This document shows, piece after piece, positions 33,113 through 61,449 of a stretch of DNA of 64,000 nt. The notes under the pieces are model-generated. The model was not told where the DNA came from and did no database searches. It saw only the letters and a program-made list of their open reading frames with translations. The stretch is from Longimicrobiales bacterium (GTDB lineage: Bacteria > Gemmatimonadota > Gemmatimonadetes > Longimicrobiales > Gaopeijiaceae). The stretch covers positions 224,001-288,000 of the forward strand of contig OZ241892.1 in NCBI GenBank assembly GCA_965203485.1, read 5' to 3'. The translations under genes and the position numbers were made by a program. The number at the start of each line of letters is the position of its first letter. Positions within the stretch are counted from its first letter, which is position 1.

Positions 33113-34285
33113 ATGAGCCGAAGGAAGACTGGTCGGTACGAGACCACGGCGGCCGGGGGCGAGCGAGTCCGCGCCTTCGTCCCGGCGCCGTTGCCGCCGA
33201 AGCCCCGTCTGCTCCTCGACGGGCCGCTCCTGAGACGGCTGGAATCGGCAACTCTTGCGCTAGGCCGGTTGGACAGCGTCTCGGCCCTTCTCCCCGACGA
33301 GGCCCTCTTCATCTACTCGTACGTCCGCAAGGAAGCCGTCCTCTCCTCCCAGATCGAAGGCACCCAGTCCTCCCTCTCCGACCTCTTGCTCTTCGAGTCG
33401 GGAGAGACGCCGGGAATCCCACGCGACGACGTCCTTGAAGTTTCCAACTACGTTGCCGCCCTCGACCACGGCCTGCGTCGCCTGAAAGAGGGCTTCCCCT
33501 TGTCCAACCGCTTGATCCGGGAGGCTCACGGCGTCCTTCTGTCCACGGGCGGGCAAGCCCGGGCGACTCCCGGCGAGTTCCGGCGCTCGCAAAACTGGGT
33601 CGGGGGTTCCAGACCGGGAAACGCCGTGTTCGTGCCCCCGCCTCACACCGCGGTGCAGGACTGCATGGCGGACCTGGAGCGCTTCCTTCACGCCGAAGAC
33701 GACGGCCTCCCCACACTGGTCCGGGCGGGGCTTGCCCATGTCCAGTTCGAGACGATCCACCCCTTCCTCGACGGCAACGGGCGCGTGGGGCGCCTCCTCG
33801 TCACCCTCCTGCTGAGCCACGCCGGCGTGCTGCGCCAACCGCTTCTCTACCTGAGCCTCTTCCTGAAGCGGCATCGCCAAGAGTACTACAGACTGCTCGA
33901 CCACGTGCGGCAAACGGGCGACTGGGAGGCGTGGCTCGCGTTCTTCCTGGAAGGAGTCGAGACCACGGCGGAGGGCGCCGTCGAGACGGCCCGGCAACTT
34001 CACGGAATCTTCCGGCGCGACTACGACCGCATCAGCGCCGTCGCGGGGCGTCGAACCGGATCGACCCTGCAAGTGCACGAAGTCCTCAAGGCCAAGTTGG
34101 TCGTGTCGATCAGGGGTGCTGCGAACATCACCGGCCTGACGTTTCCCACGGTCTCTCGGGCGATGCAGCTTCTGGTCGAGCGCGGCATCGCCCGAGAGGT
34201 GACCGGAGCGCCGCGCAATCGTCTGTACGTCTACGGGGAGTACATGGAGGCGCTGAACGAGGGGGTGGACGAGCCGCCGGCGTGA
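33113..34285 (+). CDS. Fic family protein with C-terminal HTH
   Basis: KEAVLSSQIEGT, PGEFRRSQNWVG, canonical HPFLDGNGRVGR. Confidence 0.93.
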   Translation: MSRRKTGRYETTAAGGERVRAFVPAPLPPKPRLLLDGPLLRRLESATLALGRLDSVSALLPDEALFIYSYVRKEAVLSSQIEGTQSSLSDLLLFESGETPGIPRDDVLEVSNYVAALDHGLRRLKEGFPLSNRLIREAHGVLLSTGGQARATPGEFRRSQNWVGGSRPGNAVFVPPPHTAVQDCMADLERFLHAEDDGLPTLVRAGLAHVQFETIHPFLDGNGRVGRLLVTLLLSHAGVLRQPLLYLSLFLKRHRQEYYRLLDHVRQTGDWEAWLAFFLEGVETTAEGAVETARQLHGIFRRDYDRISAVAGRRTGSTLQVHEVLKAKLVVSIRGAANITGLTFPTVSRAMQLLVERGIAREVTGAPRNRLYVYGEYMEALNEGVDEPPA

Positions 34286-38940: not shown

Positions 38941-39774
38941 CATCACCACCTCCGTGTCCAGCCCATGGTGCGCCACGTCCAGCTGGGGCGACTCGGCGGC
39001 AAGGCCCCGGGCCGTCACGTAGGACACCCGGAAGGGGAAAAGGCCGGGTTGCCCGAGCAGCTCCCGGACGGGCCCGGCAGGCTCGCCGTCTCGGATGTGA
39101 AGAGCGGCCTCCGCCAGCCAAGCGACCAACGCTGGGGCGTGGACCCAGCATGGCTCGCCGGCAACGTATCGACCCTGCGTCTCGGTGTCGGCCAGGATTC
39201 CCCAGTCCACGAACGACCGCACGACGCGTTGCGTGGCCCGGACGACGGTGGGGCGCTCGCCGTACTGCTCCTGGACGCGGCGGTGGACCTGGGCGGCGGT
39301 GGCGACGCCCTGCAGACGGAGGAGCCGGCCGACCTGGGTTGCAACGGCGTTCCAGAAGGGGTAGGCCGCCATCGTCATGCCCCAGTGCACGGCCAAGCGC
39401 CCGGTGGACTCCGTGGTGCCCGCCGGTTCGGTGGTCACCGCCGGTTCCGTGAGCCCGGCTGACTCCATGACCTCCGCTGGCTTGGTGGCCCTCGCCAGCC
39501 TCATGCCGTCCAGAAGGCGTAGGCCGGCGTCGCGCAACGGGAGGAGTCGCGGGGGCGGTCCGCACCAGATTCGCATCAGGATGGTGATCGTCTTTTCGCG
39601 GTTGCCGCGAGGGCTGGTTCCACCCACCGACACCTTCTCTTCAAGCATCTCCGCCAGGGCCGACCAAGCCTGCGCGCGGTCGCGTCCGGCGCGCGCCAAC
39701 CCCGCCGCCTCGTCCAGCCACTCCAGTCGGAGGCGCTGGCTGAGCCCGACCGCTTGCGACGCCGGGCCGCTCAC
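38923..39774 (-). CDS. brxA: BREX type 3 BrxA-family protein
   Basis: VGLSQRLRLEWL, REKTITILMRIW, HWGMTMAAYPF, GRLLRLQG, YGERPTV.RATQRVVRSFVDWG; GTG overlaps the pglZ stop. Confidence 0.75.
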   Translation of the reverse strand: MSGPASQAVGLSQRLRLEWLDEAAGLARAGRDRAQAWSALAEMLEEKVSVGGTSPRGNREKTITILMRIWCGPPPRLLPLRDAGLRLLDGMRLARATKPAEVMESAGLTEPAVTTEPAGTTESTGRLAVHWGMTMAAYPFWNAVATQVGRLLRLQGVATAAQVHRRVQEQYGERPTVVRATQRVVRSFVDWGILADTETQGRYVAGEPCWVHAPALVAWLAEAALHIRDGEPAGPVRELLGQPGLFPFRVSYVTARGLAAESPQLDVAHHGLDTEVVMLRAAT

Positions 39775-41771
39775 GGCTCCGCCCGCTCGATGCCGACCAG
39801 CGGCACGACGACCTCCTCCAACGACGCGCCGCCGTGGGCGACCACTCGCTTCCCCTTGCGAACGAACGCGGAGCGCCCGGGAGCCAGCAGGGGCAGGTAG
39901 TCCTGGGGCAGGCCCGCCGTCGGCCACGGCCGGGCGTCCGGGAACTCGGCGGCGGCCCGCGTGCGCAACGTCGCGCTGGGATAGACGTGGACACGCTTGC
40001 CCCGAAGGTCGGCGACTCCTCCGGTGGCTGGAAGGCCGCAACCCGTCGCTTCGACGTTGCCGTGGTCGGAGGCGAGCCAGACTCGGAAGCCGTTGTCCAG
40101 GAGCAGGTCGAGGAGCGTGGCCAAGTAGGGCTCCCGCGCCCACTGACGGACTTGGCCGTGCATTCCGCGGGCGCCGAGCTCCATGCCGTGCATGATCTTG
40201 TCCACCGTGTCCACGACCAGTCCTGCGGCCCGCACTCGCGGACGAGAGATCAGGTCGGCGACGGCCTCCGGCGAACCGGCGCCCAGGTTCTTCCGGTAGA
40301 CGGCGGCGTCGGCGGCCAGGCCGCGCCCGGTCCAGTACTGACGCCACAGCGCCGGCTCTCGATCCGTGGAGTCGATGCTGCCCGGCGGGAAGTAGAAGGG
40401 CGGCTTCCCGGCGAACGCGGCTTGGCGCGACACGGACGTGATCGTGGGAATCCAGGCGAAGACGGCCCCTTCCCGGAAGCGGTAGGCGGGCCGACGGCGG
40501 GCCAGCTCCTCGCGCACCACGACCCATTGGTCCATTGACAGGCCGTCCACGACCAGCAGGGCGGCCTTGTGCTCCGGCGCGTCGTCCAAGTGTCGCGCAA
40601 GTACGCGCGGCACGTGGTGCAGCATGACGGGCGGAGAAGGCGGCAGGTTGGCCAAGCCCGCATAGCGACGCCCCAGCCACTCGGCGAAGGCGGCGTCGAC
40701 GCGGTCGTGGAGCGCGGCAAGGTTCGGCTCGGTCGTGTCGGCGGCTTCGCGTTCCGGGGACAGGGCGAGTGCCCGAGCTTCCGCCCATGTGCGGGCGAAG
40801 CGTAGCCAATCGCCGTAGCGCGCGTCCGGGTCGGGCAGGGCGTCGGCCGCCGCGTCGAGCAGGCGTTCCAGGTGCTGCGCGTCGGCGTCGTCGCCCGAGG
40901 TCCGCACTCCGGACGCAACCCAACTATCGGCGAAGGTGTCGGCGGCCGCGTGATCGACCGGTCGCAGAAACCCCTCCCGGAACAGGTTGTCGATGTAGAC
41001 GCGAACGTCGTCGTGGTCGAAGGGCAGATTCGCCGGCCCTGGGTAGGCGAAGTTGTGGTCGTGCTCCTCCGGCGTTGTCTGGGACTCGGCGGCACGGCCG
41101 AGGAAGCGAAGCCAGCGTTCTTGAAGGAACGCGAAAAAAGCGTCCGGGTCCGGCACGATCTGCTCCAGGGGCCAGTCCTCGAAGTGGCCGTCCCGGCGGA
41201 GAATCCAAACCAGGCGCTCGCCCAGCGGTGGCGGAATCGACTGGCCGCCGTGATGGATGCGGAGCAGAGCGCGAAGCAGACTCGGAGGTTCGCGCACGAG
41301 TTCGGAGGCGATCCCGAAGACATGGCGAAGAATGAAGTCCTTGGTCGCATTGTCGCCCAGAACGCCCGGCGGCTTGCCTTCCACGGCGTCGTAGAGTGCA
41401 TCGAGTTGCGTGGGATCGAGTGTCGCCACGACCGTCCGGCTCAGGGCGGGGAACAGCGCGTCGAGTCCGAGGGTCAGCGATCTCCCGGCTTGGACTACGT
41501 CGTAGGGCAGATTGGCGGCATCAAGAACGTCCATCCTCGCCACGACGACGGCCTCGATCGGCTTGCCGTCGTCCCAGTAGCGTCGGCATCTCGACTCGTA
41601 GGCGTATCGAAACGCCACGGGTTCATCGAAGACCAGCACCTCGAAGCCCCGGTGCCGAAGCTCGGCAAGGACGGCCTCGTCCAGCACCAAGCCGTCGGGG
41701 TCGGATACGACGGTCAGCCGGGAAGCTCCCGGTGGGAACTCCTTGAGGACACGGTCGCGCCAGTTGTTCAC
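39771..41771 (-). CDS. pglZ: BREX type 3 PglZ phosphoesterase
   Basis: VSDPDGL, LLVVDGLSMDQW, FAWIPTITSVSRQA, VDKIMHG, SDHGN, HGGASLEEVVVP. Confidence 0.93.
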   Translation of the reverse strand: MNNWRDRVLKEFPPGASRLTVVSDPDGLVLDEAVLAELRHRGFEVLVFDEPVAFRYAYESRCRRYWDDGKPIEAVVVARMDVLDAANLPYDVVQAGRSLTLGLDALFPALSRTVVATLDPTQLDALYDAVEGKPPGVLGDNATKDFILRHVFGIASELVREPPSLLRALLRIHHGGQSIPPPLGERLVWILRRDGHFEDWPLEQIVPDPDAFFAFLQERWLRFLGRAAESQTTPEEHDHNFAYPGPANLPFDHDDVRVYIDNLFREGFLRPVDHAAADTFADSWVASGVRTSGDDADAQHLERLLDAAADALPDPDARYGDWLRFARTWAEARALALSPEREAADTTEPNLAALHDRVDAAFAEWLGRRYAGLANLPPSPPVMLHHVPRVLARHLDDAPEHKAALLVVDGLSMDQWVVVREELARRRPAYRFREGAVFAWIPTITSVSRQAAFAGKPPFYFPPGSIDSTDREPALWRQYWTGRGLAADAAVYRKNLGAGSPEAVADLISRPRVRAAGLVVDTVDKIMHGMELGARGMHGQVRQWAREPYLATLLDLLLDNGFRVWLASDHGNVEATGCGLPATGGVADLRGKRVHVYPSATLRTRAAAEFPDARPWPTAGLPQDYLPLLAPGRSAFVRKGKRVVAHGGASLEEVVVPLVGIERAEP

Positions 41772-41928
41772 AACCCTCGAGTGCTACCAGTCACGAAGTT
41801 TCCAGAATCCGACGAGGATGATCCATCAGACTATTCGCGCCATGGGCAAGATCTGCAGTCGAAATCCCGCCTACGCCTATCCGGGGCGGTCAGTGCTTTG
41901 GTGTTCTGCACGGAAGTTCCTTGACGTG

Positions 41929-42843
41929 CTACCGTAGCCTGGGCAACGCCGTCAACCGCTTGCGCGCCCAATCCTCCACCTCTGCCCTTCGGCCGCCTTC
42001 CAGGTAGCCGTCCGGCCCGCCTTTGAGCAATCGTGCTCGATCGAGCACGATGGCGTGATCCATGCGTCGAAAATACCGGATGTACTCTCCGTCCCTCGCC
42101 CACCACCAGGGAACCGCAAATGCCGGCACAGGTCTGGCGTTCCACTGAACGAGTTCGTTCCATCTATCGACCGGCACTCTGTCCTTTGCCATCCAGTTCC
42201 TCCCGGTTGCGCACTGGATCAGGAATACGACGGACCCTGCGGCACTCCCGCCCACTGCATGGCGCGCGGCGACGTCTAATCCGATGTCCTTGTCGTACGG
42301 TTCCACCCTTTTGCCGAGATTATGAGGTTTCAGTCCCAACTCTTGCGCAAAATGCTCAATTCTGTCGCGAACGCTAGACGGCGTGCCTTCGTCAGGCGGC
42401 CAGCCGAACCGTGCTGCCCTCCCTCCCAGAAGCCCCGTAGCCGACGCGGCGACAACATGCTCAAACAACTTCGCCAACTCTTCTCCCTCGCCGCGCCCGT
42501 AATGGCCTGCCGTCGCCGCAAGCAAGAGAAAGGCGAAACTCGGACACGACTTCAAGTCGCTGATCGTTTCCAAGGTGCTGTTGTGGACGGCTAACGGATA
42601 CTGATCGCCAAGAAACGTCTTGCGGCTCCTCAGTTCGGCCCATGTGTCTTCTTCGAGTCGATTCAGGTCGTTGGCGTCACCCGAGTCGGTGTAGTCGTAC
42701 AACCCGGCATCACGATACGCCGTTGCAACATGCTCGCGAGAGAGGACCTCGCCGTCTGCCAACGCGCACAACTCGACCCAGTCCGCAATGACATTGACGG
42801 AGTTCGTGTCTCTGCCCGGAAGGTTGGATGGAAGTTCAATCAT
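41929..42843 (-). CDS. Hypothetical protein with PD-(D/E)XK-like restriction-nuclease features
   Basis: ADWVEL N-terminus; KLFE...KDIGLDV...FLIQCATGRNW; ATG overlaps the ParB-gene stop by 8 nt. Confidence 0.6.
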   Translation of the reverse strand: MIELPSNLPGRDTNSVNVIADWVELCALADGEVLSREHVATAYRDAGLYDYTDSGDANDLNRLEEDTWAELRSRKTFLGDQYPLAVHNSTLETISDLKSCPSFAFLLLAATAGHYGRGEGEELAKLFEHVVAASATGLLGGRAARFGWPPDEGTPSSVRDRIEHFAQELGLKPHNLGKRVEPYDKDIGLDVAARHAVGGSAAGSVVFLIQCATGRNWMAKDRVPVDRWNELVQWNARPVPAFAVPWWWARDGEYIRYFRRMDHAIVLDRARLLKGGPDGYLEGGRRAEVEDWARKRLTALPRLR

Positions 42844-43942
42844 CTCCGAAATACTTGTTTCTGACGTTGGGAAAATGCTCAAGTATCTGACTCATGAAGC
42901 GTGCACACCGCCGAGCACCTTCCACAACATCCTCGTTGGTCTTGTGTTCGGAAACAAGTGCCACAATCTCTTCGAGCTTGTAGGCGGCAGTGTGCATAGA
43001 ATCACCCACGGACTGCGCTTCTCCACCGGATTTTTGCCATGCTCGGTCAAAGCTCGGTTTCTCAGCATTGCGCAAGTAACGGACTGCAGTAGGTGATTCA
43101 AGGATCTGGCCCCACTTGCTCAGCTGTCTGGAATCACTGACAACCGGTTTGAGTTCGTCGGTCCCGAAAGTCCATTCAACGAACTCACGAAAACGATCTT
43201 CATCGGCTTGCACTGGATTGCGTTGTGGTGCGCCTGTATATTCGACAGCGAGAAATCGGTTGATTCCAGGCGAATTGAGCGCACGAAGCAGAACCCCAAA
43301 TCTGCTGTCCATCCGAGTGCTTCCAGGCACGCCCCGAGCGTGGGCTTGGCGCACTATCGTGTAGGCAACGTGATGTCGCTCCACGTGCTTCGCATAGGAG
43401 CCCAATCGATCTGCCACTCTCTTGAAGTCCCAATCATGATCCTCGACTAAAGCGGATATGAATCCAGCTTTTTCGTAAGCCGGCCACTTCAAGACGCCTG
43501 TAACGTGACGAAAGCCAATGAACGCGGAGAGTTTGTGATCGTCCCTGGCATCGAACACCTCAACAGGCACCTGGCTGATCTGCCGTCTCTGGTCACGGGA
43601 GAGACGATTCGCGAAGTTCTTCCACTTGGCGTATTGCTTATGATCCTTCGCCAAGTCGGGGTCGAGCAGCAACTTCAGAGTTGCGACCCGGCGATTGCCC
43701 TCTGCGATCACGACTTTCGCCGCGTCGGCGTCGGACGGAAACCCGACCAACGGATCAAACGTCAAGTATCCGCTCGACAGAATGGACTCGGCCAGTTCCT
43801 CGAGCTTGAATCGGTCGATCAGCAATCGGAGCGTCTCCGCCTGGGGCTTGCCTCGTTCCGACGTTGCGAACCGGGGGTTTTGGGGGTCGAGTTGGAGGTC
43901 GACGGGAGAATGGTCTTGGAGCCTTGGAGTATTTGGAGTCAT
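42836..43942 (-). CDS. ParB/Srx-like N-terminal domain protein
   Basis: LQLDPQNPRF, LAESI...G, VIAEGNRRVATLKLL (ParB GxxR arginine patch), RHVTG..KW..YEKA; ATGA overlap with the MTase stop. Confidence 0.78.
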   Translation of the reverse strand: MTPNTPRLQDHSPVDLQLDPQNPRFATSERGKPQAETLRLLIDRFKLEELAESILSSGYLTFDPLVGFPSDADAAKVVIAEGNRRVATLKLLLDPDLAKDHKQYAKWKNFANRLSRDQRRQISQVPVEVFDARDDHKLSAFIGFRHVTGVLKWPAYEKAGFISALVEDHDWDFKRVADRLGSYAKHVERHHVAYTIVRQAHARGVPGSTRMDSRFGVLLRALNSPGINRFLAVEYTGAPQRNPVQADEDRFREFVEWTFGTDELKPVVSDSRQLSKWGQILESPTAVRYLRNAEKPSFDRAWQKSGGEAQSVGDSMHTAAYKLEEIVALVSEHKTNEDVVEGARRCARFMSQILEHFPNVRNKYFGDD

Positions 43943-45195
43943 GCGGATGCGAGCCTGGGAGAAAGGGGCCGGGGGCCCCGGCCGGGTCCGGGGTGAGCAC
44001 GATGGTCCATCTCGAGGCGAAGGTAGCCGCGAGGCACGGGATGTGTCGGCTCCGGCAAGGGCACGGTTGGTTTGCGGGGAATGGCTAGGGCGGGGGTGCC
44101 CGAGTAGGTCATGGCCCAGAGCTGGCGTCCGAGGGCGCGACCAAGGACTTCGGCCAGGAGCGGAGGCGTGGCGTTTCCGATCTGCTGGACTTGCTGGCGA
44201 TAGCCGCCTGTCAGTCGCCAGTTCCCCGGAAAGCTCTGGAGCCGCAACAACTCTGACGGCGCGAGACGACGGCTGGTCCAGTGAAATGGGCCCGTGCCGG
44301 GTCCCGGAGTAGCGGGCAATGTCCACGAAGGAGAGTTCTTCGCGAGCTTCAGGAGAAACGACCAGTACCGAGTCCGATATCCGAAGAGATTTCGGCCGTC
44401 GCCCCTAGAGGTGTGCCATAGGTAGTTCTGGCCTTCCGGTATGGAGGGCAACAGATCCGCCCAACAGCCCGTCGCGGCCGGCCGTGCGCGAGGACGAAGG
44501 TGTCCGATGGCGTCCCAAGCACGGACGGGCAAATCGGCGTGGGTCTTGTCGGGCCACGCGAACGACTTCGGGCCTCGAACCGCAAGCAGGAAACCTCGCC
44601 GACGAGCTTGCGGCACGCCGTAGTCGGCGGCATTGAGGATCGTGGAGTGAACGTGGTACGAGTCCCTACGGTTGCCGACGGCCTCCAGCGCATGTTGCAG
44701 AACGGGCAACATGGACGTGCGTCCCTTGATCAAGCCGGGCACGTTTTCCAGCAGAACCGCCCGGGGACGGAATGCATCCACGATTCGCAACAAGGCTTGC
44801 AGAGAACCTGCACGTGGATCCTCGCGGCCCCTGCGTCCGTTCTTCGTCCACTGCGCCGCCATCGAGAACGGTTGGCACGGTGGGCCAGCAGCAATCAGGT
44901 CGAGTTCTCCGCAAGCCATTTCGAGCGCAGCGGGCTTCAGTTCCCTGGCGGCGTCCTCGACCCTCCTGCAACCCGACAGAGTCCAGTTCGGCCGATTCCG
45001 GCGCAAGGTGGCACGGACCACAGGGTCCTGCTCCACACAGTGCACGGTGCGGAAGCCAGCGTTTTCCAACCCGAGATCCAGCCCGCCCATCCCCGTAAAT
45101 AGAGACAGGACTCGTGGCCCACCTGCGTTCCTCCCGGTACGTCGGCTCTCCCTGCCAGGGAAAGCTACGGTACGCCTCGGGTCGCTCTGGGCCAC
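43939..45195 (-). CDS. dcm: DNA (cytosine-5)-methyltransferase
   Basis: LFTGMGGLDLG (motif I), GPPCQPFS (IV), ENVPG (VI), YGVPQARRR (VIII), RLQSFP, QIGNATPP. Start uncertain (GTG 45195 or ATG 45309). Confidence 0.93.
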   Translation of the reverse strand: MAQSDPRRTVAFPGRESRRTGRNAGGPRVLSLFTGMGGLDLGLENAGFRTVHCVEQDPVVRATLRRNRPNWTLSGCRRVEDAARELKPAALEMACGELDLIAAGPPCQPFSMAAQWTKNGRRGREDPRAGSLQALLRIVDAFRPRAVLLENVPGLIKGRTSMLPVLQHALEAVGNRRDSYHVHSTILNAADYGVPQARRRGFLLAVRGPKSFAWPDKTHADLPVRAWDAIGHLRPRARPAATGCWADLLPSIPEGQNYLWHTSRGDGRNLFGYRTRYWSFLLKLAKNSPSWTLPATPGPGTGPFHWTSRRLAPSELLRLQSFPGNWRLTGGYRQQVQQIGNATPPLLAEVLGRALGRQLWAMTYSGTPALAIPRKPTVPLPEPTHPVPRGYLRLEMDHRAHPGPGRGPRPLSPRLASA

Positions 45196-45537
45196 GGTCT
45201 GCTTCAGGTCCGCCCGGAGGTCGGACTGGCAGGGGCGCAGGCGGCCAACGCGACGGCGGAACTCATGGCTGGCCTCCTCTTGTGGGGCTTTGGCGACTGA
45301 ACGGAACATCGCCCGTGACGGTATCGTGGTCCGACGGAGCCTGGCCCCGCGTCCTCGGGCCGCGCCGTCTTCTCCACAAGATGAGCATGGCGAGGCAGAC
45401 TGGGCAACCCTCCCTATTGGGCCGAGTCGGGCCTGCGGAGAGCATTCGGGCGGCACTACGGCCTGGAGTCGTCAGGAGATGCGCGTCCATGACGCCCTCC
45501 ATCATGCTCCACGAAGGCATCGTCCCCTGCAGGCTAG

Positions 45538-45776
45538 TAGCCCCGTGGCAAAAGTCCCTTTGCCGGCGCTCCAGTTTGGGTAGGTTCGAGGGAGACGAGG
45601 AACCTCTCGAAGGAGGACGGCGATGGCGATGGGCAGGTAGCGTCGCGGGCCGGAGCAAGCGCTGTTCTTGGCGACCAGCGCGGCGGAGAATCCGTTCTAT
45701 CGGGCCCTGAACGAGTTGCTGGACGAGAACGGCGTCGGCCCGTTCGCCGAGGACCTGTGCGAGGAGTTCTACGCGC
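45538..45776 (+). mobile_element. 5' fragment of an IS1182/IS5-like element, cut by IS21
   Basis: End TAGCCCCGTGGCAAAAGTCCC after CTAG resembles the 56753 end; encodes ENPFYRALNELLDENG...DLCEEFYA as in 55438-56753. Confidence 0.8.
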
Positions 45777-45904
45777 TGTCGAGCGACAACCAAGATGAGA
45801 CGGTAGCGGCAACCAAGATGAGACTGCCGGAGGCGGCCGTGATCTGAGGTCGAGGGATTCGGACGCGGGTTCGGTCCTGTCGTTCGGAGGCCGGCCGTCG
45901 GTGA

Positions 45905-48327
<2,423 letters not shown>

Positions 48328-48949
48328 CCGCCCGGCTGCCCGGCCCAACGCCCGCGCCGACGACCGACCACCTGATCGGCGCCCGGGCTCGCTTCCACAA
48401 CCGCCTCCGACTCGCAACCCCGGCGCCGGCGCTCGTGCGGAAGTCCCATGAAACAACCCGAATTCAGGGGTATCCCAGGTCGGGTCCGTGCGAGACCTCG
48501 CGTTAGACGGCCAGCAGCGGCCTCGAATTCCGGCAAGACCAGCCAACTCTCCGCGATCAAGCGCTTTGGGTCGGACGGGTGCCTGCTCCAGGGCCTCACT
48601 TGCCCCATGCCCAACCCCCTCGTCTTGACCCGTTCCACCTCCGTTGCCATCGTTCCTGTCACGATCCTGGACGTCTCATCCTGATTGTCGCCGGGGTCTT
48701 ATCCTGATTGTCGCTCTACAACTGGGGAAATCGTGCGAAGATCAGAGCTGGTAACGGAATGGCCCGTAGCTTTCCCCCGTCTGGAAAAGAGGAGCGGCAC
48801 GATCCGTTCAATAGGACCGGCCCATGTTCGGCTGAAGCCGTTCGCGGGGCCGGGGTCCGATCTCCGTTGCCGTAGCCGGTCGGCCTCGGCCAAGACCATC
48901 TCCAGCATGATCTGGCCATGTGCTCCCGTTGAGGCCTCGTTCTCGAACC

Positions 48950-49320
48950 CGTGGGACAGTTCGGTGCATCCGTGGCTTGAGGACCGCGGCCCGGCTTGCC
49001 CTGATGCTGATCGCGTCGCCACGATGCGACCAACGAGCTCATGTGCGTACGTGGGGCCGGGGCGGGCACTTCGGCCAGTGCTTCGGCCCGGAGGGCAAGC
49101 CGACTCGGACGATCATCGGCATCGCGCTGGACAAGCTGGGCGTCAAGGTGATCCTGGCGCACTCGCCGCAGGCAAAAAGACGGGTCGACCGAACGTTCGG
49201 TCCGGCACAGGACCGGCTGGTCAAGGAGATGCGCCTAGCGCGGACCACACGCTCGAGGCGGTGCTCCGCTACCTGGTGGAGCGGTGCATGCCGTTCTGGA
49301 CGAGTGCTTCGCGGTGGCGT
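48950..49320 (+). pseudogene. ISNCY-type transposase remnant
   Basis: SVHPWLEDRGP; GIALDKLGVKVILAHSPQAKRRVDRTFGPAQDRLVKEMRLA in broken frames. Confidence 0.7.
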
Positions 49321-49635
49321 CGAGTTCATCGGCACCAACCCGACCCCGCCAGAATCTGAGCCAGCCACATGAAATACTAACCCACGCTATCCACGCCCAT
49401 ACGATTTCGTTCGGAACCGTCAATTCGAATGGAATCGTCATTGCTTCTCTTCCTGTCCATCCACCACCTACAGACAAACTCTCGTTTGCTCTTCTGTAGG
49501 CCTCATCCAAGGCCCTCCCCTTGACGACCAGCATCGAATGTTTAGGATGAACCCATGAACTACCCGGCCTCTACGAGAATGACGCCAAGCTCTCTTCCGC
49601 CTTCCCACAATCCATGATCGAAAGGACCACCAACC

Positions 49636-50394
49636 GTGCTTGAGCTTTTCTTCCAGCACCTTCTTGCCCCGCTTTCCGTCTTGGCCGTCGCCACGGCCTT
49701 TCCGTGGTTGAGGAAGAAGGCGCGAGATGGGGCGACGGTCGCATGGCGATCCGCTGGCAGTCTGTTGCACCGCTTTGCTCACTTGGCGACTGCCGGAACC
49801 AAAGAGCGACGCGATCAGCGATTCGTTGCGCGCGTGAAGGCTGCCCACCAGGCCGACACCGAGATGCTCGGCGAGATTATCGACGCGCACGGCCTGGCAC
49901 TGTCTGCCCTGCATACGGTCGTCGCCACCATGCTCTTGCCCGAAGAGGCAAGCAACGGCAAGAAGCATCTTCCGAACAGCGCAAAGATGCTGTGCTGGTT
50001 CATGCTCTATCGGTACCTGTATCCCGGTGCTCTCGACCTTGGCGACACGAAGACGATAGCCGCATACCGAAAACAACATGCCGAAGAAGGCCCTGGCAGG
50101 TGGACGACGTCCCTGCAAGGCCACTGCACCGACAAGAGCAAACTTCTAGACGAGTTCATTGACGTCATGGACGGAGGTCCGCGCCTGTTCAGCCGCGACA
50201 TGAACAACGGCATACTCAACATAAGGATCGTTCACGCGTTCTACGGATTCCCTGGTCTTGTCATCAAGTGTTACGTCTGGGTCGGCGACTCGTGGTCCGG
50301 CGACAAAGGACCAAAGCTCGACCACAAGCAAGCATATTCGGCCGCCAAGGATAAGTTGGCCGCAGGTGGTGGATGGAAGGAAGAACAGGAATGA
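49636..50394 (+). CDS. Hypothetical protein with N-terminal hydrophobic anchor
   Basis: RBS AAAGGA; 252 aa; no recognised motif. Confidence 0.55.
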   Translation: MLELFFQHLLAPLSVLAVATAFPWLRKKARDGATVAWRSAGSLLHRFAHLATAGTKERRDQRFVARVKAAHQADTEMLGEIIDAHGLALSALHTVVATMLLPEEASNGKKHLPNSAKMLCWFMLYRYLYPGALDLGDTKTIAAYRKQHAEEGPGRWTTSLQGHCTDKSKLLDEFIDVMDGGPRLFSRDMNNGILNIRIVHAFYGFPGLVIKCYVWVGDSWSGDKGPKLDHKQAYSAAKDKLAAGGGWKEEQE

Positions 50395-50714
50395 CCGCAT
50401 TTTTGCAAGGTGCCCTGGGCACGCTCTTTGGTGGTGCCGTACTTGCGTGGGCCATCTGGGTTACCAAGGTGTGCGTAGCCAACAGCAGTCTGCCCAAAAA
50501 TAGGGCGATAATCAACAAGGAGCCCAGTGCTAGCGAGACCACAACCCCGTCACCAGATGGTCTTGCTGCCAACCCGCAACGACCAAAGAAGTTGGCCGAG
50601 TCCGGTAGTAGCAAGCCTGAAAACGAGGGGCCGGGAACGACGGCCCCGACGAGAACGGCGACAGTGACGCCACGGATGAAAAGAAGAGCACCTGATGTAT
50701 CCGAAGAGATCTGA
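50391..50714 (+). CDS. Small hypothetical membrane protein
   Basis: ATGA overlap with the upstream gene; TM segment followed by a low-complexity tail. Confidence 0.45.
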   Translation: MTAFLQGALGTLFGGAVLAWAIWVTKVCVANSSLPKNRAIINKEPSASETTTPSPDGLAANPQRPKKLAESGSSKPENEGPGTTAPTRTATVTPRMKRRAPDVSEEI

Positions 50715-50821
50715 TCGGGGAAGTGATCAATGTGCAGATGTATTCTCCGAAAATCGTGACCGGCTACGTAGTGGTGTTCAACGTAGCCGACCGTGCACCG
50801 GAGATTTCAGGCCTGGGCATG

Positions 50822-51316
50822 CACGGGCGTGCTCGAAGCGGTGCTCGAGGACTTGGCGGGCGAAGCGAAGCAGCGGGGTCTGTTCGACGGCTCGGAGGCG
50901 TACGTCGACACGTCGTTCGCGCGGGCGTGGGAAACACCAAGGCGGGCAAGGGCGTGAAGATCATGGCGATCGTGGACCGTTGCGGGCTTCCGCTGTCGTT
51001 GAGCACGCACTCCTGCGAACCCGCACGAGGCGACGCTGGTGCAGCTGTCGCTGGACTTGGCGTTCGGGAAGGCCGAGCCTGCGAATTTGATCGGCGACGA
51101 GGCGTACGACAGCGATCCGCTGGACGCGGCACTGCGGGTAGCGGGGCGTGGAGATGATCGCGCCGCACCGCCGCAACCGCCGTCGGCCGCGGACGCAGGA
51201 CGGGCGTCGCCTGCGCCGCGCGAAGCGCCGGTGGATCGTCGAGCGGTTCTTCGGCTGGATGCAATGGAAACGCCGGCTTCTGGTCCGCTGGGAGTATCAT
51301 CCGGAGAGCTTTCTGG
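50822..51316 (+). pseudogene. Degraded IS5 copy (5'-truncated), interrupted by IS21 copy 2
   Basis: Similar to 36528-37319 ([33 protein letters not shown]) with frameshifts; continues at 54261. Confidence 0.85.
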
Positions 51317-51709
51317 TGTAGAGCGACAATCAGGATAAGACCCCGGCGACAATCAGGATGAGACGTCCAGGATCGTGACAGGAACGATGGCAACGGAGGT
51401 GGAACGGGTCAAGACGAGGGGGTTGGGCATGGGGCAAGTGAGGCCCTGGAGCAGGCACCCGTCCGACCCAAAGCGCTTGATCGCGGAGAGTTGGCTGGTC
51501 TTGCCGGAATTCGAGGCCGCTGCTGGCCGTCTAACGCGAGGTCTCGCACGGACCCGACCTGGGATACCCCTGAATTCGGGTTGTTTCATGGGACTTCCGC
51601 ACGAGCGCCGGCGCCGGGGTTGCGAGTCGGAGGCGGTTGTGGAAGCGAGCCCGGGCGCCGATCAGGTGGTCGGTCGTCGGCGCGGGCGTTGGGCCGGGCA
51701 GCCGGGCGG

Positions 51710-54132
<2,423 letters not shown>

Positions 54133-54260
54133 TCACCGACGGCCGGCCTCCGAACGACAGGACCGAACCCGCGTCCGAATCCCTCGACCTCAGATCACGG
54201 CCGCCTCCGGCAGTCTCATCTTGGTTGCCGCTACCGTCTCATCTTGGTTGTCGCTCGACA

Positions 54261-54328
54261 TTCTGGCGTTCGTCCAACTGTCCGCGATCTGCATCTTCTT
54301 CAGGAACCTCGGTTTTTGAGACAGGTTC
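54261..54328 (+). mobile_element. 3' end and TIR of the interrupted IS5 copy
   Basis: Encodes LAFVQLSAICIFFRNLGF; ends TTTTTGAGACAGGTTC followed by TA. Confidence 0.85.
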
Positions 54329-54455
54329 TAGTCAATCGTGGCAAAACTGGAGAAGTTGACCATTAGCGGGTCGCTTTCGGCGGAGATTCTTGGAGGACGC
54401 AATCGCGCCAGTTGCGCACTGTCCCCACCTGTAGTCTCCCAGCGTTACCAGCATC

Positions 54456-55433
54456 TCAACCATTATCACCAAGCCAGGGAGGTGCTGCCGAGAAAGGCGG
54501 CAGGGATCGTTGGACCTTGACAAGTTGCTTCGACAAGTAGTGCACATACTCTGCCATGCATCCATCAAACCACCATAGGTCTTGCATCTTTTTTAGTTCT
54601 GCCAAAGCGGCAGTGGGCAAAACCAATCCGGCCTTCCATATCCTAAACAATAGTAAATCTAATCGTGCTTCCATGTCAATAAATTCATCAAATGTTTCAC
54701 GATTTATTGACCAAACCTCTTGAACTAATTGTGGTAGTTGTTCTCCCCAAGATGCGTCAATATCTACCAATACATCAGTGGTGACTGTGGCTGGAAACTT
54801 ATGGAAATCGTATTGATGGCTAATAAACGGAACCAATCCGTCTCCATCAATCCATACGATTCTTTCAACTAAATAAACCACATGGTTTTCAGACCAGTAT
54901 TGAACCTCTGGCTCTGCTTCACTGCTAGTATATAGCCAATGAATCTTCGGAGGAATATGATGCAAGGTTTGCTGGCCAAGAGACAAACCCGATGCTTGCC
55001 ACCGGTCACCAAGCCATACCGGTAAACATCCAAAAGATTCAATCACTACAAGAGATCGTCCAACGATCCAGTTAGACATACCTAGATGGTGATCGTCATT
55101 CATCATCTTGTCTGCTATAGTGGCCTCATGAGCTTCCTTCATCGCAAACAATCTATCAGTAGTATAGGAGAGCGGTTTTTGATCGATCAATCTATGGTGA
55201 GTGGGGCACAAGAGGATAATATTTTTGTGTGAGTTAACGCTATCCCATCGCTGTACGTTCTTGCCGCGTGGACCATCCGGTCGTCTTGCTACAATGTGAG
55301 CTTCTTGTCCAATAACCACATTGCCATCACGACAAGTATCCTTTTCAACTAGGGCTTGACCACATCCCGGAAAAGCACACTGATTTCCCGACCTAACCCA
55401 CAGAATCTTTCTGTCTCGATCTCTAATCGCCAT
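54456..55433 (-). CDS. HNH endonuclease fused to an unknown C-terminal domain
   Basis: LWVRSGNQCAFPGC, EAHIVARRPDGPRG, NIILLCPTHHRLID...L..MK..HE; AT-rich. Confidence 0.82.
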   Translation of the reverse strand: MAIRDRDRKILWVRSGNQCAFPGCGQALVEKDTCRDGNVVIGQEAHIVARRPDGPRGKNVQRWDSVNSHKNIILLCPTHHRLIDQKPLSYTTDRLFAMKEAHEATIADKMMNDDHHLGMSNWIVGRSLVVIESFGCLPVWLGDRWQASGLSLGQQTLHHIPPKIHWLYTSSEAEPEVQYWSENHVVYLVERIVWIDGDGLVPFISHQYDFHKFPATVTTDVLVDIDASWGEQLPQLVQEVWSINRETFDEFIDMEARLDLLLFRIWKAGLVLPTAALAELKKMQDLWWFDGCMAEYVHYLSKQLVKVQRSLPPFSAAPPWLGDNG

Positions 55434-55437
55434 CTAG

Positions 55438-56753
55438 CAGTCCGTGGCAAAAAGGCTTTGCGTGGAGCGCGGGAATACAAGGTTGAGACGGGCGTTCAGA
55501 GGTCCCGACAGCGTGAATGCGGGGAAATTGGGTCCGGAAAAGGTCCCCGAGGCCGCAGAACGCCCTGAGAGCGGCAAAACGACTGCGAATTCGGCGCAAG
55601 ACAGCGGATGCAACCCCTGCCCAGCAGGAGTCGAGCACAACTTGCGCGGCGGCGGGGCGGCCCTGCAGGCTCCGAGGCGTGCCGACTCCGAAGCGTTGTC
55701 GCATCAGCAACCCCAGATTGAAGGCGGCGACGTGAATCAGCATCCGCTTTCGGACTTCCTCCTGGCCTCGAACGTGCACACGCCGCATCCCACCCGTCAC
55801 CAGCAAGTGCGCGAACGTCCGCTCCAGCTTCTCGCCCCGCAACCGCAACAACCACTTGCCGCGCTCCCCTCGAATCCGCCTCCGGTTCGCGTAGACCGGC
55901 TTCTGAGCGTCCTTCGCCTGCTTCCAGTTCCGGCGACCCCGGGCGGGCTCGCTCACGTAGCTGCGCAACCCCCGACCCGCGACCTCCTTCATCGTCTCGT
56001 TCGAGTGGTACCCCTTGTCGCACACCACTTCCGCCGCCGCCCCGCCGCTTCGTCCAGCGTCTCCCCCAGCGACGCCACGTCGCCCCCGTCCATCGTCTGC
56101 ACCGTCACGCCCACCACGGCGCCCGACTCCAGGTCCACCGCCTGCTCCAGCTTGTGCGCCAAGTGCGTGCGGCCGTCCTTCATCTTTGCGATCAGTGCTT
56201 CCGGGTCGCCCGGATGCACCCACTGCGCGTTCGATCCCTTCTTCGACCGCTTCCGGTCCAGCTTCGCCAACTCCTCGCGCGTCGGCGTCTCGATCCCCGA
56301 CGCCCGCGCCAACTCCCGCAACCACTCCTCGTAGCCCCTGCCCCCGTCGCGCCGCACGATCGAGCGCATCGCCGCGTTCGCCTCCAGCGTCGTCGAGCCC
56401 ACCCCCAGCGTGCCGCCGCCCAGCAACCCCGAGTCGTCCAACAGGAACCCCACCATCATCATGCGAAAGTACACCTCGGGGGGGATGCCGAGCCTGCCCA
56501 CGTTGCCTGCGTAGAACTCCTCGCACAGGTCCTCGGCGAACCGGTCGAAGCCGTTCTCGTCCAGCAACTCGTTCAAGGCCCGATAGAACGGATTCTCCGC
56601 CGCGCTGATCTCGCTGATCGCCACGAACAGCACTTGCTCCGCCGCGCCGCTGCCTGCCCATCGCCATCGCCGTCCTCCTTCGAGAGGTTCGTCGTCTCCC
56701 TCTAATCTACTACCCAACTGGAACGCCGACACAGGGACTTTTGCCACGGACTG
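55438..56753 (-). mobile_element. IS1182/IS5-like element with internally deleted, frameshifted transposase
   Basis: Perfect 15-bp TIRs CAGTCCGTGGCAAAA / TTTTGCCACGGACTG; flanks CTAG and ATAG; PFYRALN, PPEVYFRM, STTLEANAAMRSIVRR, CDKGY, ERTFAH. Confidence 0.85.
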
Positions 56754-56769
56754 ATAGCGGCCCCCGGAA

Positions 56770-57104
56770 CTCGCTTCCGCAATCGACTTCGACTCGCAAC
56801 CCCGCCTCCGGTGCCGGTGCGACAGTCCCCTGAACAATCCGAATTCGGGGGGTATCCTAGGCCGGGTCCACTCGAGATATCGCGTCAGACGGCCACCAGC
56901 GGCCTCGAACTCCGGCAAGACTGGCCAACTCTCCGCGATCAAGCACCTCGGCCGGCTGGGCGCCTGCTCCGCGGGCCCCCGCTTCGCTCCATGCCCAAGC
57001 CCTCGCCCTTGACCGGCTCCACCTCCGCTGACATCGTTCCCGTCGCGATCCCGGACGTCTCATCTTGATTGTCGCCGGGGTCTCATACTGATTGTCACTC
57101 TACA
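56770..57104 (+). mobile_element. Right-end remnant of a diverged IS21 relative
   Basis: Aligns by eye to ~48388-48720; ends ...TGATTGTCACTCTACA. Confidence 0.85.
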
Positions 57105-57377
57105 GCCCGAGTCGCCAGCCGACAGGTTCCCTCCAAGCCGCCTCGGCCAGCAAGTGGCGAACCCTACGCATGCTCTCCTCATCGTCGATCCGCCTGCTCA
57201 TCCAACGGCACCCCCCCGGGTGCGTAGCACCTGGCCGCGCGGCCACCCATCCGTGTCGCCTTTCGACCCGTTGGACCAAATTTCAACCCGCATCTACCCA
57301 TTGCACCAATACGAAGCACACATTATCTTCCCGTTTCTGTTGCGTGCGGCAGGTCGCTACCCTTTAGCCCGGTCACC

Positions 57378-58589: not shown

Positions 58590-58647
58590 CGAGCACCATT
58601 TTAATGCAATAACGCTATCGATATTTCGTAGCTTAACATCATTGACC

Positions 58648-61449
58648 TCACCTCTCCGCCTCCTTCCGCCTCTTCGCCTGGTCGTACCACATCAGCAGCT
58701 GGAGGTCCTCCCGCAGCACCTTGTCGGGGACCTTCCGGGCGATATCGAGGATCGTGTCGTAGTCGCCCTTTCCCCAGGCGTGGCGGAAGCCGGCGCGAAC
58801 GGCCTCCAGGCGGAACTTTGTCAGGCGTCGTAGCGACGGCTCCCGGTAGGTCTGGAACTCCCGGAGCAGCGTGCGCTCCCGGAGCCGTTCCAGGTCGGTG
58901 GCCTTGTTGACGTCCGGCACGTACCAGCGGTCGCAGGCGCGCTTCCGCAAGGTGGAGTCGTCCTTGGGCAGGTTCCGGGCGTCCTTGTAGTTGCTGGACA
59001 AGTAGCCGTGAATCTGGCAGGGGACCTCGCCCTCGCCGTCGTAGCAGAGGAAGTTCTGCTCAAGGAGGGCGGACAGCTCCAGAAGCTGCTCGTGCCTCTG
59101 CCAGCCGCCGAGTTCGCGGATGAAGTCGGGATGGATCGCCGAGAAGGTCCGGGGGCGGGCCTTCAGCTGGAAGCGTAGCCACTCGATGGCGGACTTTTCG
59201 TCGATCACAAGCAGGGCCAGCTGTTCGATGCGCTGGACCGTGAGGCGCTTTCGGTCGTGCTCGGCGGCTTGCTCCGGGAGGAAGTACATGCCGTTGCGGG
59301 CCGCGAACCGCTGCTTCAGGCCTTCGTAGAACTCGGCGGCCGAGAGGGGGATGATGACGCCTCGCTGGACATGGAACGCCACCATTCGGTCGAAGAGGAG
59401 GTAGTCGAGGCGCTCGGCCACGATCTCCGCCACATCCCCCTTGGCCACGAACACCGGCAGGTTCCTGAGGTGATTGTGGACGAAATCCCAGACGCCGTCC
59501 TCGCTTCCGGCCGTTAGCTTGAAGCGCGCCTCCAGGTCGCGGGATGGCTTGTAGCACGAAATGACCAGGTCTTGCTTCACGGCGCCGCTGGCAACGGCTT
59601 GGTTGTAGGAGCCCACCTTCTTGTCCAGCGTACGCACGTCGGCCACGACCAAGCCGGCGGCGGACAGGCTCTCCTGAATGGTGTTCCAGACTGAGTTCTG
59701 GGAGTTGTGGAACACGACGGTCATCCACCGTCCCGGCTTGAGAACACTGGCGTACTCGCCGAAGCAACGTCCCATGAGCACTTGGTATTCGTCCAGTTGC
59801 TTGCGTTGAGTCGGGCTGACGATCGCTTCCGGGGCTTGGTTCGTGAAGACGCCGTGGAACGCCTCGACGACGAAGTTGAGTTCGCCGTAGGCCAAGTTGT
59901 CGCCGAAGGGCGGGTCAGTGAAGATGTAGTCAACGGAATCCGCCGGAATCGGGATGCGTCCGCAGTCCACGGCCGATACGACAGCATGGCCACGACGCGA
60001 AGGCATGGGCGTGAACGCCTTGGGCAATCGGCCAGTGCGTCCCGTTAGGTTGTAGCGCAGGGAGCATTCCGAGATCTGGGAACTGACGTAGTACACGCCG
60101 GACATCGCACGGTTCACCTGGGAGCCGCCGGGGCGTCCGTGCTGGATCGGCTGGTACCGATTCAAGATGGACATGCCGAGGATCGCCTGCTCCGCCAAGA
60201 ACATGAGCATGTTGCGCAACCGCAGGTCGTCCTGTTGGCGAACCAAGCCCCACAAGCAAGCCAGAGTACGCGCGGCTCGAGGCAAGAACAAGTGGTGCAC
60301 ATGCTGAAACGAGGCCGACCCGGCCCGCCACTTGTCGCCCCACTTCGTCACGCCGTCGGAGACGTGCATCATGCGGTCCAGCGGCACGCCTTGGAGGGGC
60401 TCGATGGTTGCGATTCGCTCGAGAAGTTGAAGATCCGCGCTGTCCGGCTCCTTGTCGTGCCTGTCGTTGCCGATCTGATAGTTGATCAGGACGGGCACTC
60501 GCTTGGGTTCGTCGACGCTCCGTTCAAGGGCTTGATCCCAGCGGGCGGAAGAACTCCGCACGAGCCGTATCTTCGTCAGCACCACCCCGCACTCCGGGCA
60601 CGGAAATTCCTTCTTCACTTTCTTGGTCTGGACGTCCACGGCCTCCCTCCCGAACACCACCTCCCCGCCGCAGTCCGGGCACGAGAACACCTCGCTCCAT
60701 ACCGTGTAGTTGATGCGGCCCTTGGTCTTGCCGTCGGTGTGGAGCGTCTCGTACATCCAGCCGATGTCCTTCTCCACGTCGTCCAGCAGTTGCTTGGCCG
60801 CTTCGGCGAACTCGTCCACGTCGAAGGGGATGTTGTAGTTGGCGGCGATGAACGTGGCCGCGGGGGACAGGTCGCCCAGGACGGTCTGCCTCGCACCCCA
60901 CTTGGGCGGCTCCCGGCCTTGGTCCTTCCATTCCTTCTCGAGCTTGCGGCGGTACTCTTCCGGCGCCGCGCCGCACCACTGGGCGGCCACGCCGGTCATT
61001 CCCGAGCCGCAGAAGCCGTCCAGCACGATGTCGCCGGGTTCGGTGTAGTGCAGGATCGACGGGACGATTGCCAGGTGGGGCACCTTGGTGTGATAGCCGT
61101 GCGCCCGGTAGAGGGGATCGGTCTTGCCCACGCTCACGTCCACGGCGAACGGCTCGCGGTGGTACTCCTCGGCGGGGTCGTGGGGCGTGCCGCAACGCTC
61201 GACGAACTCGGCCAGGAACGGGTTCGGGCAGGCGGTGTAGTACGGCGGGTCCGACATGCGCAGGATGTTCTCGTCTTCCCCCTTGGGAAAGTCGGGACGC
61301 TTGCGCAGCTCGGGGAGCTTCTCGCGCAGCCGTTGCAGGAAGTGCTTGCGCCGGGCGTCGTCGGACTCGAAGGTCATGCCCAGGCACTCGACCTTGTTGG
61401 TCTTCGGGGCGGCCTTCCGCTCGAAGAGCCTGCTCGGCGAGTCGGTCAT
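58648..61449 (-). CDS. pglXI: BREX type 3 DNA methyltransferase PglXI
   Basis: SDPPYYTACPNPF, YHTKVPH, LDGFCGSGMTG (SAM binding), DYIFTDPPF (catalytic), RLEAVRAGF; lies directly downstream of brxC. Confidence 0.85.
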   Translation of the reverse strand: MTDSPSRLFERKAAPKTNKVECLGMTFESDDARRKHFLQRLREKLPELRKRPDFPKGEDENILRMSDPPYYTACPNPFLAEFVERCGTPHDPAEEYHREPFAVDVSVGKTDPLYRAHGYHTKVPHLAIVPSILHYTEPGDIVLDGFCGSGMTGVAAQWCGAAPEEYRRKLEKEWKDQGREPPKWGARQTVLGDLSPAATFIAANYNIPFDVDEFAEAAKQLLDDVEKDIGWMYETLHTDGKTKGRINYTVWSEVFSCPDCGGEVVFGREAVDVQTKKVKKEFPCPECGVVLTKIRLVRSSSARWDQALERSVDEPKRVPVLINYQIGNDRHDKEPDSADLQLLERIATIEPLQGVPLDRMMHVSDGVTKWGDKWRAGSASFQHVHHLFLPRAARTLACLWGLVRQQDDLRLRNMLMFLAEQAILGMSILNRYQPIQHGRPGGSQVNRAMSGVYYVSSQISECSLRYNLTGRTGRLPKAFTPMPSRRGHAVVSAVDCGRIPIPADSVDYIFTDPPFGDNLAYGELNFVVEAFHGVFTNQAPEAIVSPTQRKQLDEYQVLMGRCFGEYASVLKPGRWMTVVFHNSQNSVWNTIQESLSAAGLVVADVRTLDKKVGSYNQAVASGAVKQDLVISCYKPSRDLEARFKLTAGSEDGVWDFVHNHLRNLPVFVAKGDVAEIVAERLDYLLFDRMVAFHVQRGVIIPLSAAEFYEGLKQRFAARNGMYFLPEQAAEHDRKRLTVQRIEQLALLVIDEKSAIEWLRFQLKARPRTFSAIHPDFIRELGGWQRHEQLLELSALLEQNFLCYDGEGEVPCQIHGYLSSNYKDARNLPKDDSTLRKRACDRWYVPDVNKATDLERLRERTLLREFQTYREPSLRRLTKFRLEAVRAGFRHAWGKGDYDTILDIARKVPDKVLREDLQLLMWYDQAKRRKEAER

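Follow-up and report, generated by a model that had tools for sequence, protein, structure and literature searches.

A ParB-like protein and a predicted nuclease form a widespread restriction-modification-like cassette, one copy of which is nested in a BREX locus of a Longimicrobiales bacterium

Analysis of a 64,000-nt window of the genome of a Longimicrobiales bacterium (contig OZ241892.1 of assembly GCA_965203485.1, positions 224,001-288,000) revealed three adjoining genes, coding for a C5 cytosine DNA methyltransferase (gene 1), a ParB-like protein (gene 2) and a predicted nuclease (gene 3). They lie within a BREX (bacteriophage exclusion) locus and belong to a widespread mobile cassette, which is found outside BREX as one conserved restriction-modification (RM)-like unit. 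The cassette is an unnamed but previously catalogued, unvalidated RM-like family, a variant of restriction-modification with a subunit of ParB layout. Our preferred explanation of how it works is that a ParB-like clamp gated by a nucleoside triphosphate (NTP) licenses the separate nuclease; we put this forward tentatively, giving it a little less than an even chance. The methylase would thereby probably label the DNA of the cell, and the other two proteins would probably cut invading DNA on which the label is missing.

Relatives of the cassette were fetched by gene 2 alignment, yielding the best 80 of 471 matches in GTDB, the best 80 of 465 in metagenomes and 53 viral contigs; the frequency of solitary gene 3 cannot be read from sets collected in this way. 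Gene 3 stood beside gene 2 in 77 of the 80 GTDB loci, in 58 of the 59 metagenome loci that extend 1 kb or more downstream and in 36 of the 41 viral loci with the same room, where the misses include genes similar to gene A of the defence system PD-lambda-5 (see below). In all 145 non-redundant loci having both genes, gene 3 follows gene 2 in the same direction. This linkage is far beyond chance. The methylase lies up- or downstream of the pair, on either strand. When only metagenome loci with room on both sides were considered (n=31), gene 3 was found in every one and a methylase in 26; for the corresponding viral loci (n=30) the numbers were 27 and 29, and 28 of these 29 methylases were of the D12 type. 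The fetched flanks of the GTDB loci contained a C5 methylase in 52 cases, a D12 adenine methylase in 8 and either in 59. Vsr was present in 12 of these loci and MORC/Z1/DUF4420 genes were seen in 10; none had a brx gene. A preliminary description of this stretch had proposed an RM-like unit of linked genes protected by 5-methylcytosine (5mC). Such a unit is indeed conserved in relatives outside BREX and a methylase is its usual companion, but the 5mC type is not obligatory, since a large clade has N6-methyladenine (m6A) enzymes of the D12 type.

The distribution is patchy, with gene 3 profile matches in 11 of 301 genomes of the phylum. The same genome carries a second ParB-like and nuclease pair outside the window (C1:3454971-3458648, or L100:10972-14649); here 400 bp separate the two genes, the methylase is a convergent D12 adenine enzyme similar to PD-lambda-5B, and BREX is absent. 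Two further arrangements were seen among the relatives. Five loci have a PD-lambda-5A-like gene in addition to the ParB-nuclease pair and one D12 methylase for both, a hint that a common mark protects the two effectors. In eight loci the pair is appended to restriction operons composed of a C5 methylase, a MORC ATPase, Z1 and DUF4420, and four of these have an HhH-GPD glycosylase in between.

The ParB-like protein and the nuclease travel as one unit, as can be seen from their congruent trees. FastTree trees were built for 146 loci, taken from 167 with both genes after ParB identities of at least 90% were dropped; the helix-turn-helix (HTH) columns were excluded from the ParB tree. Of its 61 well-supported splits, 53 were identical in the nuclease tree and two conflicted with a well-supported split (shuffled mean, 0.09). 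The class of the methylase partner, m6A or 5mC, shows only two changes when mapped onto the ParB tree and a single one on that of the nuclease, and pairs therefore keep their methylase class for long times. The C5 subfamilies have been swapped several times (7 changes for 4 classes).

All three genes of the window are open reading frames (ORFs) without internal stops (Table 1). Genes 1 and 2 overlap by the ATGA at 43939-43942, genes 2 and 3 by 8 nt, ATGATTGA, at 42836-42843, and gene 3 ends 157 bp before the start of pglZ. The GC content of genes 1, 2 and 3 is 0.65, 0.55 and 0.60, compared with 0.64-0.72 for pglZ, brxA, pglXI and brxC and 0.69 for the genome; at third codon positions (GC3) the values are 0.71, 0.60 and 0.69 versus 0.84-0.91 for the same brx locus genes. 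The earlier account of three intact, coupled genes next to pglZ, with the ParB-like and nuclease genes poorer in GC than the brx genes, is thus accurate. No sigma-70-like promoter or terminator was found between 41700 and 45800. An ORF of 20 codons that has a ribosome-binding site (GGAGG) stops 9 bp ahead of the proposed GTG of gene 1 and could be a leader. The triplet is covered by contigs of four sequencing runs; the whole stretch is spanned by none. Contigs of two runs from other samples (X6 and X7) fuse the methylase upstream side (45427-45438) to the pglZ/brxA junction (39710-39878), which suggests another arrangement in related strains; the short sides of these joins comprise just 41-79 bases.

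Table 1. Positions in the window of the cassette genes, of motifs in gene 2 and of surrounding features
Feature	Position	Strand	Basis
Gene 1, C5 cytosine DNA methyltransferase	43939..45195	-	PF00145, TIGR00675, motifs
Gene 2, ParB-like protein, 368 aa	42836..43942	-	AlphaFold2, Foldseek, HHalign
Gene 3, predicted nuclease, 304 aa	41929..42843	-	AlphaFold2, VIA-align, residue conservation
EGNRR phosphate-binding (Box II) motif, gene 2 residues 81-85	43688..43702	-	Alignment
Helix-turn-helix, gene 2 residues 173-202	43337..43426	-	Model and ParB alignment
pglZ (BREX type 3), outside the cassette	39771..41771	-	NF033449, E 6.5e-226
pglXI methyltransferase (BREX type 3)	58648..61449	-	PADLOC PglXI
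brxC, further upstream	61571 to beyond window end		PADLOC BrxC
Possible leader ORF, 20 codons	45204-45266	-	
IS21-family copy	45777-48720		
IS21-family copy, inverted relative to the other	51317-54260		
HNH gene, 325 aa, GC 0.45	54456-55433	-	
ORF, 403 aa	57378-58589	+	No Pfam/NCBIfam match
ORF, 367 aa	35194-36297	+	No Pfam/NCBIfam match
ORF, 252 aa	49636-50394	+	No Pfam/NCBIfam match
SoFic-type Fic protein	33113-34285	+	PADLOC, E 6e-117

The product of gene 1 (418 aa counted from the GTG; the true start is uncertain) matches PF00145 with E 1.1e-46 and exceeds the TIGR00675 cut-off. Six C5-methylase motifs are located at residues 33, 104, 150, 196, 309 and 340, the catalytic PC being residues 106-107, which agrees with its initial assignment. 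Solved relatives align with its catalytic half only and point to no target site.

Gene 2 has no Pfam match, and searches of solved structures with the family profiles of genes 2 and 3 gave nothing below E 0.6. Its homologues number 537. In an AlphaFold2 model (mean predicted local distance difference test, pLDDT, 94.7) an NTP-binding domain (residues ~3-150) is predicted to be followed by a DNA-binding domain (~154-283), with HTH helices at 173-180 and 184-202, and by C-terminal helices (307-365, seen as a helical region at 307-363 with VIA-align). Clamp-type ParB, KorB and Noc occupy the top Foldseek rows, among them ParB-CDP (6sdk, E 3e-6) and ParB-parS (6t1f, TM 0.60 by target). VIA-align scored PadC highest (Z 8.5, residues 3-150), then pNOB8 ParB (7.9), Spo0J (7.3), the KorB DNA-binding domain (5.1) and SspE (5.0). 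A profile of 197 homologues aligned colinearly with canonical ParB over residues 5-204, HTH included (HHalign probability 97.6, E 4e-12). The arginine patch EGNRR, which was what had first pointed to ParB, is present and each of E81, G82, N83, R84 and R85 occurs in 100% of the 197 aligned homologues; the NPR motif and both arginines of canonical ParB are retained. The protein holds more than this patch, as it has the whole ParB layout.

The AlphaFold2 model of gene 3 (pLDDT 93.9) has an N-terminal winged helix (~11-119) and a PD-(D/E)xK-like core (~120-277). With VIA-align the best match was AF1548 (Z 7.5, root-mean-square deviation 4.0 over 110 residues), then SdaI (6.8) and FokI (6.3), and further down Card1, PaqCI, BspD6I (5.8) and MspJI (5.2). 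The structural neighbours are mainly PD-(D/E)xK restriction-fold nucleases. A nuclease fold of this type, suspected earlier from the pattern E...D-x-G-x-D...QC, is thus predicted from the consistency of the list and from the motif, whose residues are E128, D186-x-G-x-D190 and Q210-C211. Among 146 non-redundant homologues, every one has D190 and Q210 and 138 have K220; these three residues form the putative catalytic centre. At position 128 most homologues have Glu or Gln, C211 is not invariant, and the winged-helix region shows little conservation, with a small number of columns reaching 80%. No Pfam, NCBIfam or PADLOC family covers gene 3. The PADLOC run was blank for it and for all 149 alignment members; for gene 2 it gave partial matches (PDC-M38A and PD-lambda-5). 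The matches among PHROGs are unannotated ones; in the ESM Atlas there are unnamed clusters, with HaeII as a weak lead (0.83). The gene 3 profile nevertheless reaches 3,070 clusters at 50% identity.

These data could be explained by the following mechanism, which builds on observed gene content, linkage, co-inheritance and conserved motifs and on folds of genes 2 and 3 that are predicted with high confidence. Gene 1, given its fold and motifs, would methylate a short host motif with 5mC. A dimer of the gene 2 protein, whose layout is seen in the model, would bind the unmethylated motif through its HTH, together with an NTP. Judging from the architecture, the dimer might then close round DNA and slide as ParB does. 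The loaded clamp would recruit or activate the gene 3 protein, and the D190/Q210/K220 centre of the predicted fold would cut near the site or away from it. NTP gating would make cutting conditional, and loss of the methylase might therefore be tolerated. Licensing of a separate nuclease by an NTP-gated clamp is favoured by the linkage and tree congruence of the pair, the clade-stable methylase class, the clamp layout of gene 2 and the nuclease-like fold of gene 3. It is also favoured by the patchy distribution, by the presence of relatives in the P2 defence hotspot and by PD-lambda-5, which shares gene 2 residues 6-262 and protects broadly. The full version, a ParB-type sliding-clamp restriction enzyme in which a ring gated by an NTP, possibly CTP, would load where methylation is missing and take a separate nuclease along as it slides, appears to us possible but rather doubtful.

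A number of observations weigh against the licensing clamp. In comparison with canonical ParB, the Box I Gln of gene 2 is replaced by Asp/Glu, the Box II Glu by Asn, and the EN of Box III is aligned to RH. The ParB fold includes ATP, CTP and GTP binders and the nucleotide is not reliably predictable, according to a report from the Le laboratory (10.1101/2025.10.10.680097). For both reasons the earlier suggestion that gene 2 uses CTP is not supported. For gene 3, no Foldseek match reached E 0.001 and the fold scores are moderate, with Z not exceeding 7.5; the QxK lysine is absent, the sequence being Q-C-A, with a conserved Lys ten residues on. The HTH turn shows a Gly-Asp versus Gly-Ser split that tracks the methylase class, with Gly-Asp in 41 of 41 m6A-paired loci and in 1 of 71 5mC-paired ones, but this amounts to one independent pair and is not significant. 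The cassettes of phage Wphi and 12474III combine near-identical methylases with different HTH recognition helices, so that reading of the methylated site by the HTH becomes strained.

The last finding would fit a second arrangement with the same RM logic, in which the winged helix of gene 3 reads the site and gene 2 serves as a non-sliding, NTP-fuelled allosteric activator or DNA-looping scaffold similar to the NTPase domains of GmrSD or SspE. Gene 3 has a winged helix of its own, as do FokI and SdaI, and many ParB-fold proteins are non-clamps that bind ATP or GTP (10.1101/2025.10.10.680097). However, the winged-helix region shows weak conservation, whereas gene 2 retains the clamp-type HTH and C-terminal helices, and its best matches are clamps, SspE reaching just Z 5.0. 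We consider this arrangement unlikely.

Further points against the licensing clamp come from loci without a methylase. A methylase is kept in 112 of the 146 non-redundant loci, and the other 34 have no intact adjacent one; the same holds for 19 of the 83 loci flanked by 3 kb or more on either side. All 34 methylase-less loci nevertheless retain D190 and Q210. When ten methylase-less genomes were examined, a close methylase was found elsewhere in four: in three of five from the m6A clade, where two matches contain a stop, and in one of five from the 5mC clade. The only published test was also negative. Rousset et al. (2022, PMC9122126) cloned the copy of E. coli W (phage Wphi) with its native promoters as pFR107 in E. 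coli MG1655; it is given in their table of tested, not validated systems, and no defence was reported against eight phages, including lambda, all propagated on MG1655. The Wphi genes are homologous to ours: orf98 matched the profile of gene 2 with E 2e-50, orf96 that of gene 3 with E 2e-25, and mth matched gene 1 itself with E 6e-18. E. coli MG1655 is dam+ dcm+, and masking of restriction in the pFR107 test is therefore possible, though masking by Dcm is less likely because the recognition region of the Wphi methylase is HaeIII-like. Wphi has reportedly been connected with restriction of lambda; the E. coli W genome paper describes W as restriction-minus.

Intact catalytic residues at methylase-less loci, and the lack of plain restriction in the pFR107 test (PMC9122126), would be expected if the ParB-nuclease pair were an infection-triggered abortive guard. 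In that case gene 2 would sense a phage signal (a change in the NTP pool, modified DNA or a phage protein) and free the nuclease, the methylase being accessory. PD-lambda-5 has been described by its authors as a compacted RM+Abi (abortive infection) system (PMC9519451), which points in the same direction. On the other hand, those loci that keep the methylase, the majority, nearly always have it adjacent and of a clade-stable class, and Vsr is co-inherited in the 12 GTDB loci mentioned above. A guard of this kind seems to us improbable. Still less probable is that the module mainly targets plasmids or competing mobile elements, or that it serves addiction or gene regulation, instead of opposing lytic phages. 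The absence of defence against the eight phages (PMC9122126) would agree with such a role, as would carriage of the cassette by prophages and the existence of regulators with the same layout, namely KorB, VirB and Noc (10.1101/2025.10.10.680097). It is opposed by the obligate nuclease-fold partner, by the location in known defence hotspots and by the fact that just 4 plasmid records were matched. Clamp-licensed cleavage remains our preferred explanation.

The host locus is a type 3 BREX system with brxF (upstream of pglXI), brxC, pglXI, pglZ and brxA. The triplet is situated between pglXI and pglZ, in the same orientation, with ~13 kb of insertion sequence (IS) elements and accessory genes separating it from pglXI. 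No brxHII was found between pglXI and pglZ (41771-58648): of 18 BrxHI/HII profile matches in the genome none falls between these genes, and when six ORFs from SNF2 regions of the genome served as tblastn queries, no brxHII remnant was detected in this interval. The BREX system of the window may thus be incomplete, and the triplet could in principle be a functional part of it that substitutes for the missing BrxHII helicase. This we regard as highly improbable. Genes 1-3 match no brx family, their GC3 is lower, and none of 213 related loci (80 genome, 80 metagenome and 53 viral) has a brx homologue, as screened with the type 3 brx proteins of the window, which distant BREX types could escape. 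BREX loci commonly contain embedded cassettes, almost all of them co-oriented (Payne et al., 10.1101/2024.01.29.577857), and brxHII is reported in just 77% of type 3 systems. A 2026 BREX survey (PMC12839542) lists accessory PD-(D/E)xK nucleases and GmrSD; the dcm-parB-nuclease triplet was not seen there. The nested position first described is real, but the link is incidental and the triplet is a mere passenger.

Several other features of the window are given in Table 1. The two IS21-family copies are 100% identical and enclose a 2.6-kb segment in the BREX locus, possibly as an invertible or composite element. Remnants of other IS elements lie in the same ~13-kb interval between pglXI and the triplet. 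A third copy is located at genome positions 371186-374146 next to a DndB-like fragment; an SNF2 gene near it was considered as BrxHII and rejected as a poor match. The HNH gene, inside the BREX locus, has an N-terminal HNH domain and an unrecognised C-terminus. The three ORFs without family matches, of which the 403-aa and 367-aa ones have GC 0.46-0.47, are possible further defence cargo. The Fic gene is downstream of the BREX locus.

NTP-driven restriction enzymes are known to use helicase-like or AAA+ motors. If the mechanism proposed here is true, immunity would join chromosome segregation and gene regulation as a use of the ParB switch, and restriction would be powered in a new way, one that can be combined with 5mC or m6A methylases across thousands of protein clusters. 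It would also assign a function to a nuclease family of ~3,070 clusters and throw light on the mechanism of PD-lambda-5, whose ParB module is the same. This can be tested directly, because the Wphi version is present in E. coli W, a laboratory strain, and 104 of 5,426 complete E. coli genomes have its pair at 99% or more. The prior cataloguing and the one negative test temper this weight.

As first described, the cassette matches no named system, but it had been catalogued: Tables S5B and S2B of Rousset et al. (2022, PMC9122126) include it as P2-hotspot system #2, an 'RM-like system' counted 1,136 times within a group whose labels are HEPN and methylase Pfams, and one homologue had been cloned without being validated. 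Wphi and four E. coli P2 loci matched our gene 1, 2 and 3 queries, and the same proteins appear in these tables; other P2-like phages and E. coli prophages also bear homologues of all three genes. System #2 has homologues of all three genes in common with our locus and the same ParB-then-nuclease order. It differs in that the Wphi mth is convergent and HaeIII-like, whereas gene 1 precedes the pair in the same direction and belongs to another C5 subfamily. System #2 is located between gpA and gpQ of a P2-like prophage, whereas our copy is chromosomal and flanked by BREX type 3 and IS elements, a difference of context and not of the proteins. No nuclease fold, clamp layout or mechanism was seen in the published entry (PMC9122126). 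No mechanism for the cassette was found in the literature searched, mainly open-access; supplementary tables on PDC systems and DefensePredictor may list it, and a term search did not find 'ParB' in the main text of Iyer et al. 2008 or of DefensePredictor.

Membership of PD-lambda-5, ParABS, GmrSD/SspE, PDC-M38 or the BREX core was considered and rejected. The CTP clamps ParB/Spo0J, KorB and Noc have the NTP domain, HTH and C-terminal helices in common with gene 2. As for ParABS, gene 2 scores 20.4 with TIGR00180 against a cut-off of 58.45; no ParA was found among 30 window proteins scanned, nor a recurring adjacent ParA in the best 80 of 471 loci, and a separate canonical parB is present in the genome at C1:3207479-3208012. 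Type II restriction-modification, with nucleases that have an Mrr/MspJI-type core, shares the C5 methylase, a nuclease with D...Q residues and the frequent proximity of Vsr, but the cassette has in addition an apparently obligate ParB-like second subunit, predicted to bind NTP, and an altered QxK lysine. GmrSD/BrxU and SspE also couple a ParB-fold NTP domain to a nuclease, and BrxU is likewise embedded in BREX. In GmrSD/SspE, however, a ParB/DUF262 NTPase is fused to HNH, while the cassette has no DUF262 or HNH Pfam match, encodes a nuclease of another fold in a separate gene and includes a methylase. The N-terminal half of PDC-M38A, a PADLOC candidate, resembles gene 2 residues 46-329 (E 2e-15, model positions 60-336), yet PDC-M38A is a fusion of ~715 aa with an ABC-type ATPase, against 368 aa for gene 2. 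A full-length PDC-M38A match was seen at L114:9663-11858, where a ParB-like domain of the gene 2 family is joined to an ATPase of the AbiLi/AriA/GajA type; this locus yielded no homologue of gene 3.

The nearest validated relative is PD-lambda-5 (Vassallo et al. 2022, PMC9519451), composed of a ParB/HEPN protein and a D12 methyltransferase. PD-lambda-5A-like proteins are homologous to gene 2 over the shared region (HHalign probability 100), although the PADLOC match of gene 2 covers residues 15-161 only, of a 466-position model. Cassettes of the m6A clade have a methylase similar to PD-lambda-5B. PD-lambda-5 consists of two genes, its effector being part of a fusion protein (430-500 aa), and the C-terminus of PD-lambda-5A is unrelated to gene 3 (probability 0.2), which in our locus is a separate PD-(D/E)xK-like protein. 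Its gene B encodes a D12 adenine methylase, as opposed to the C5 enzyme of gene 1; of the two copies of the pair in this genome, only the second has a D12 enzyme. Overall, the cassette shares its ParB module with PD-lambda-5 and differs from it in having a separate predicted nuclease.

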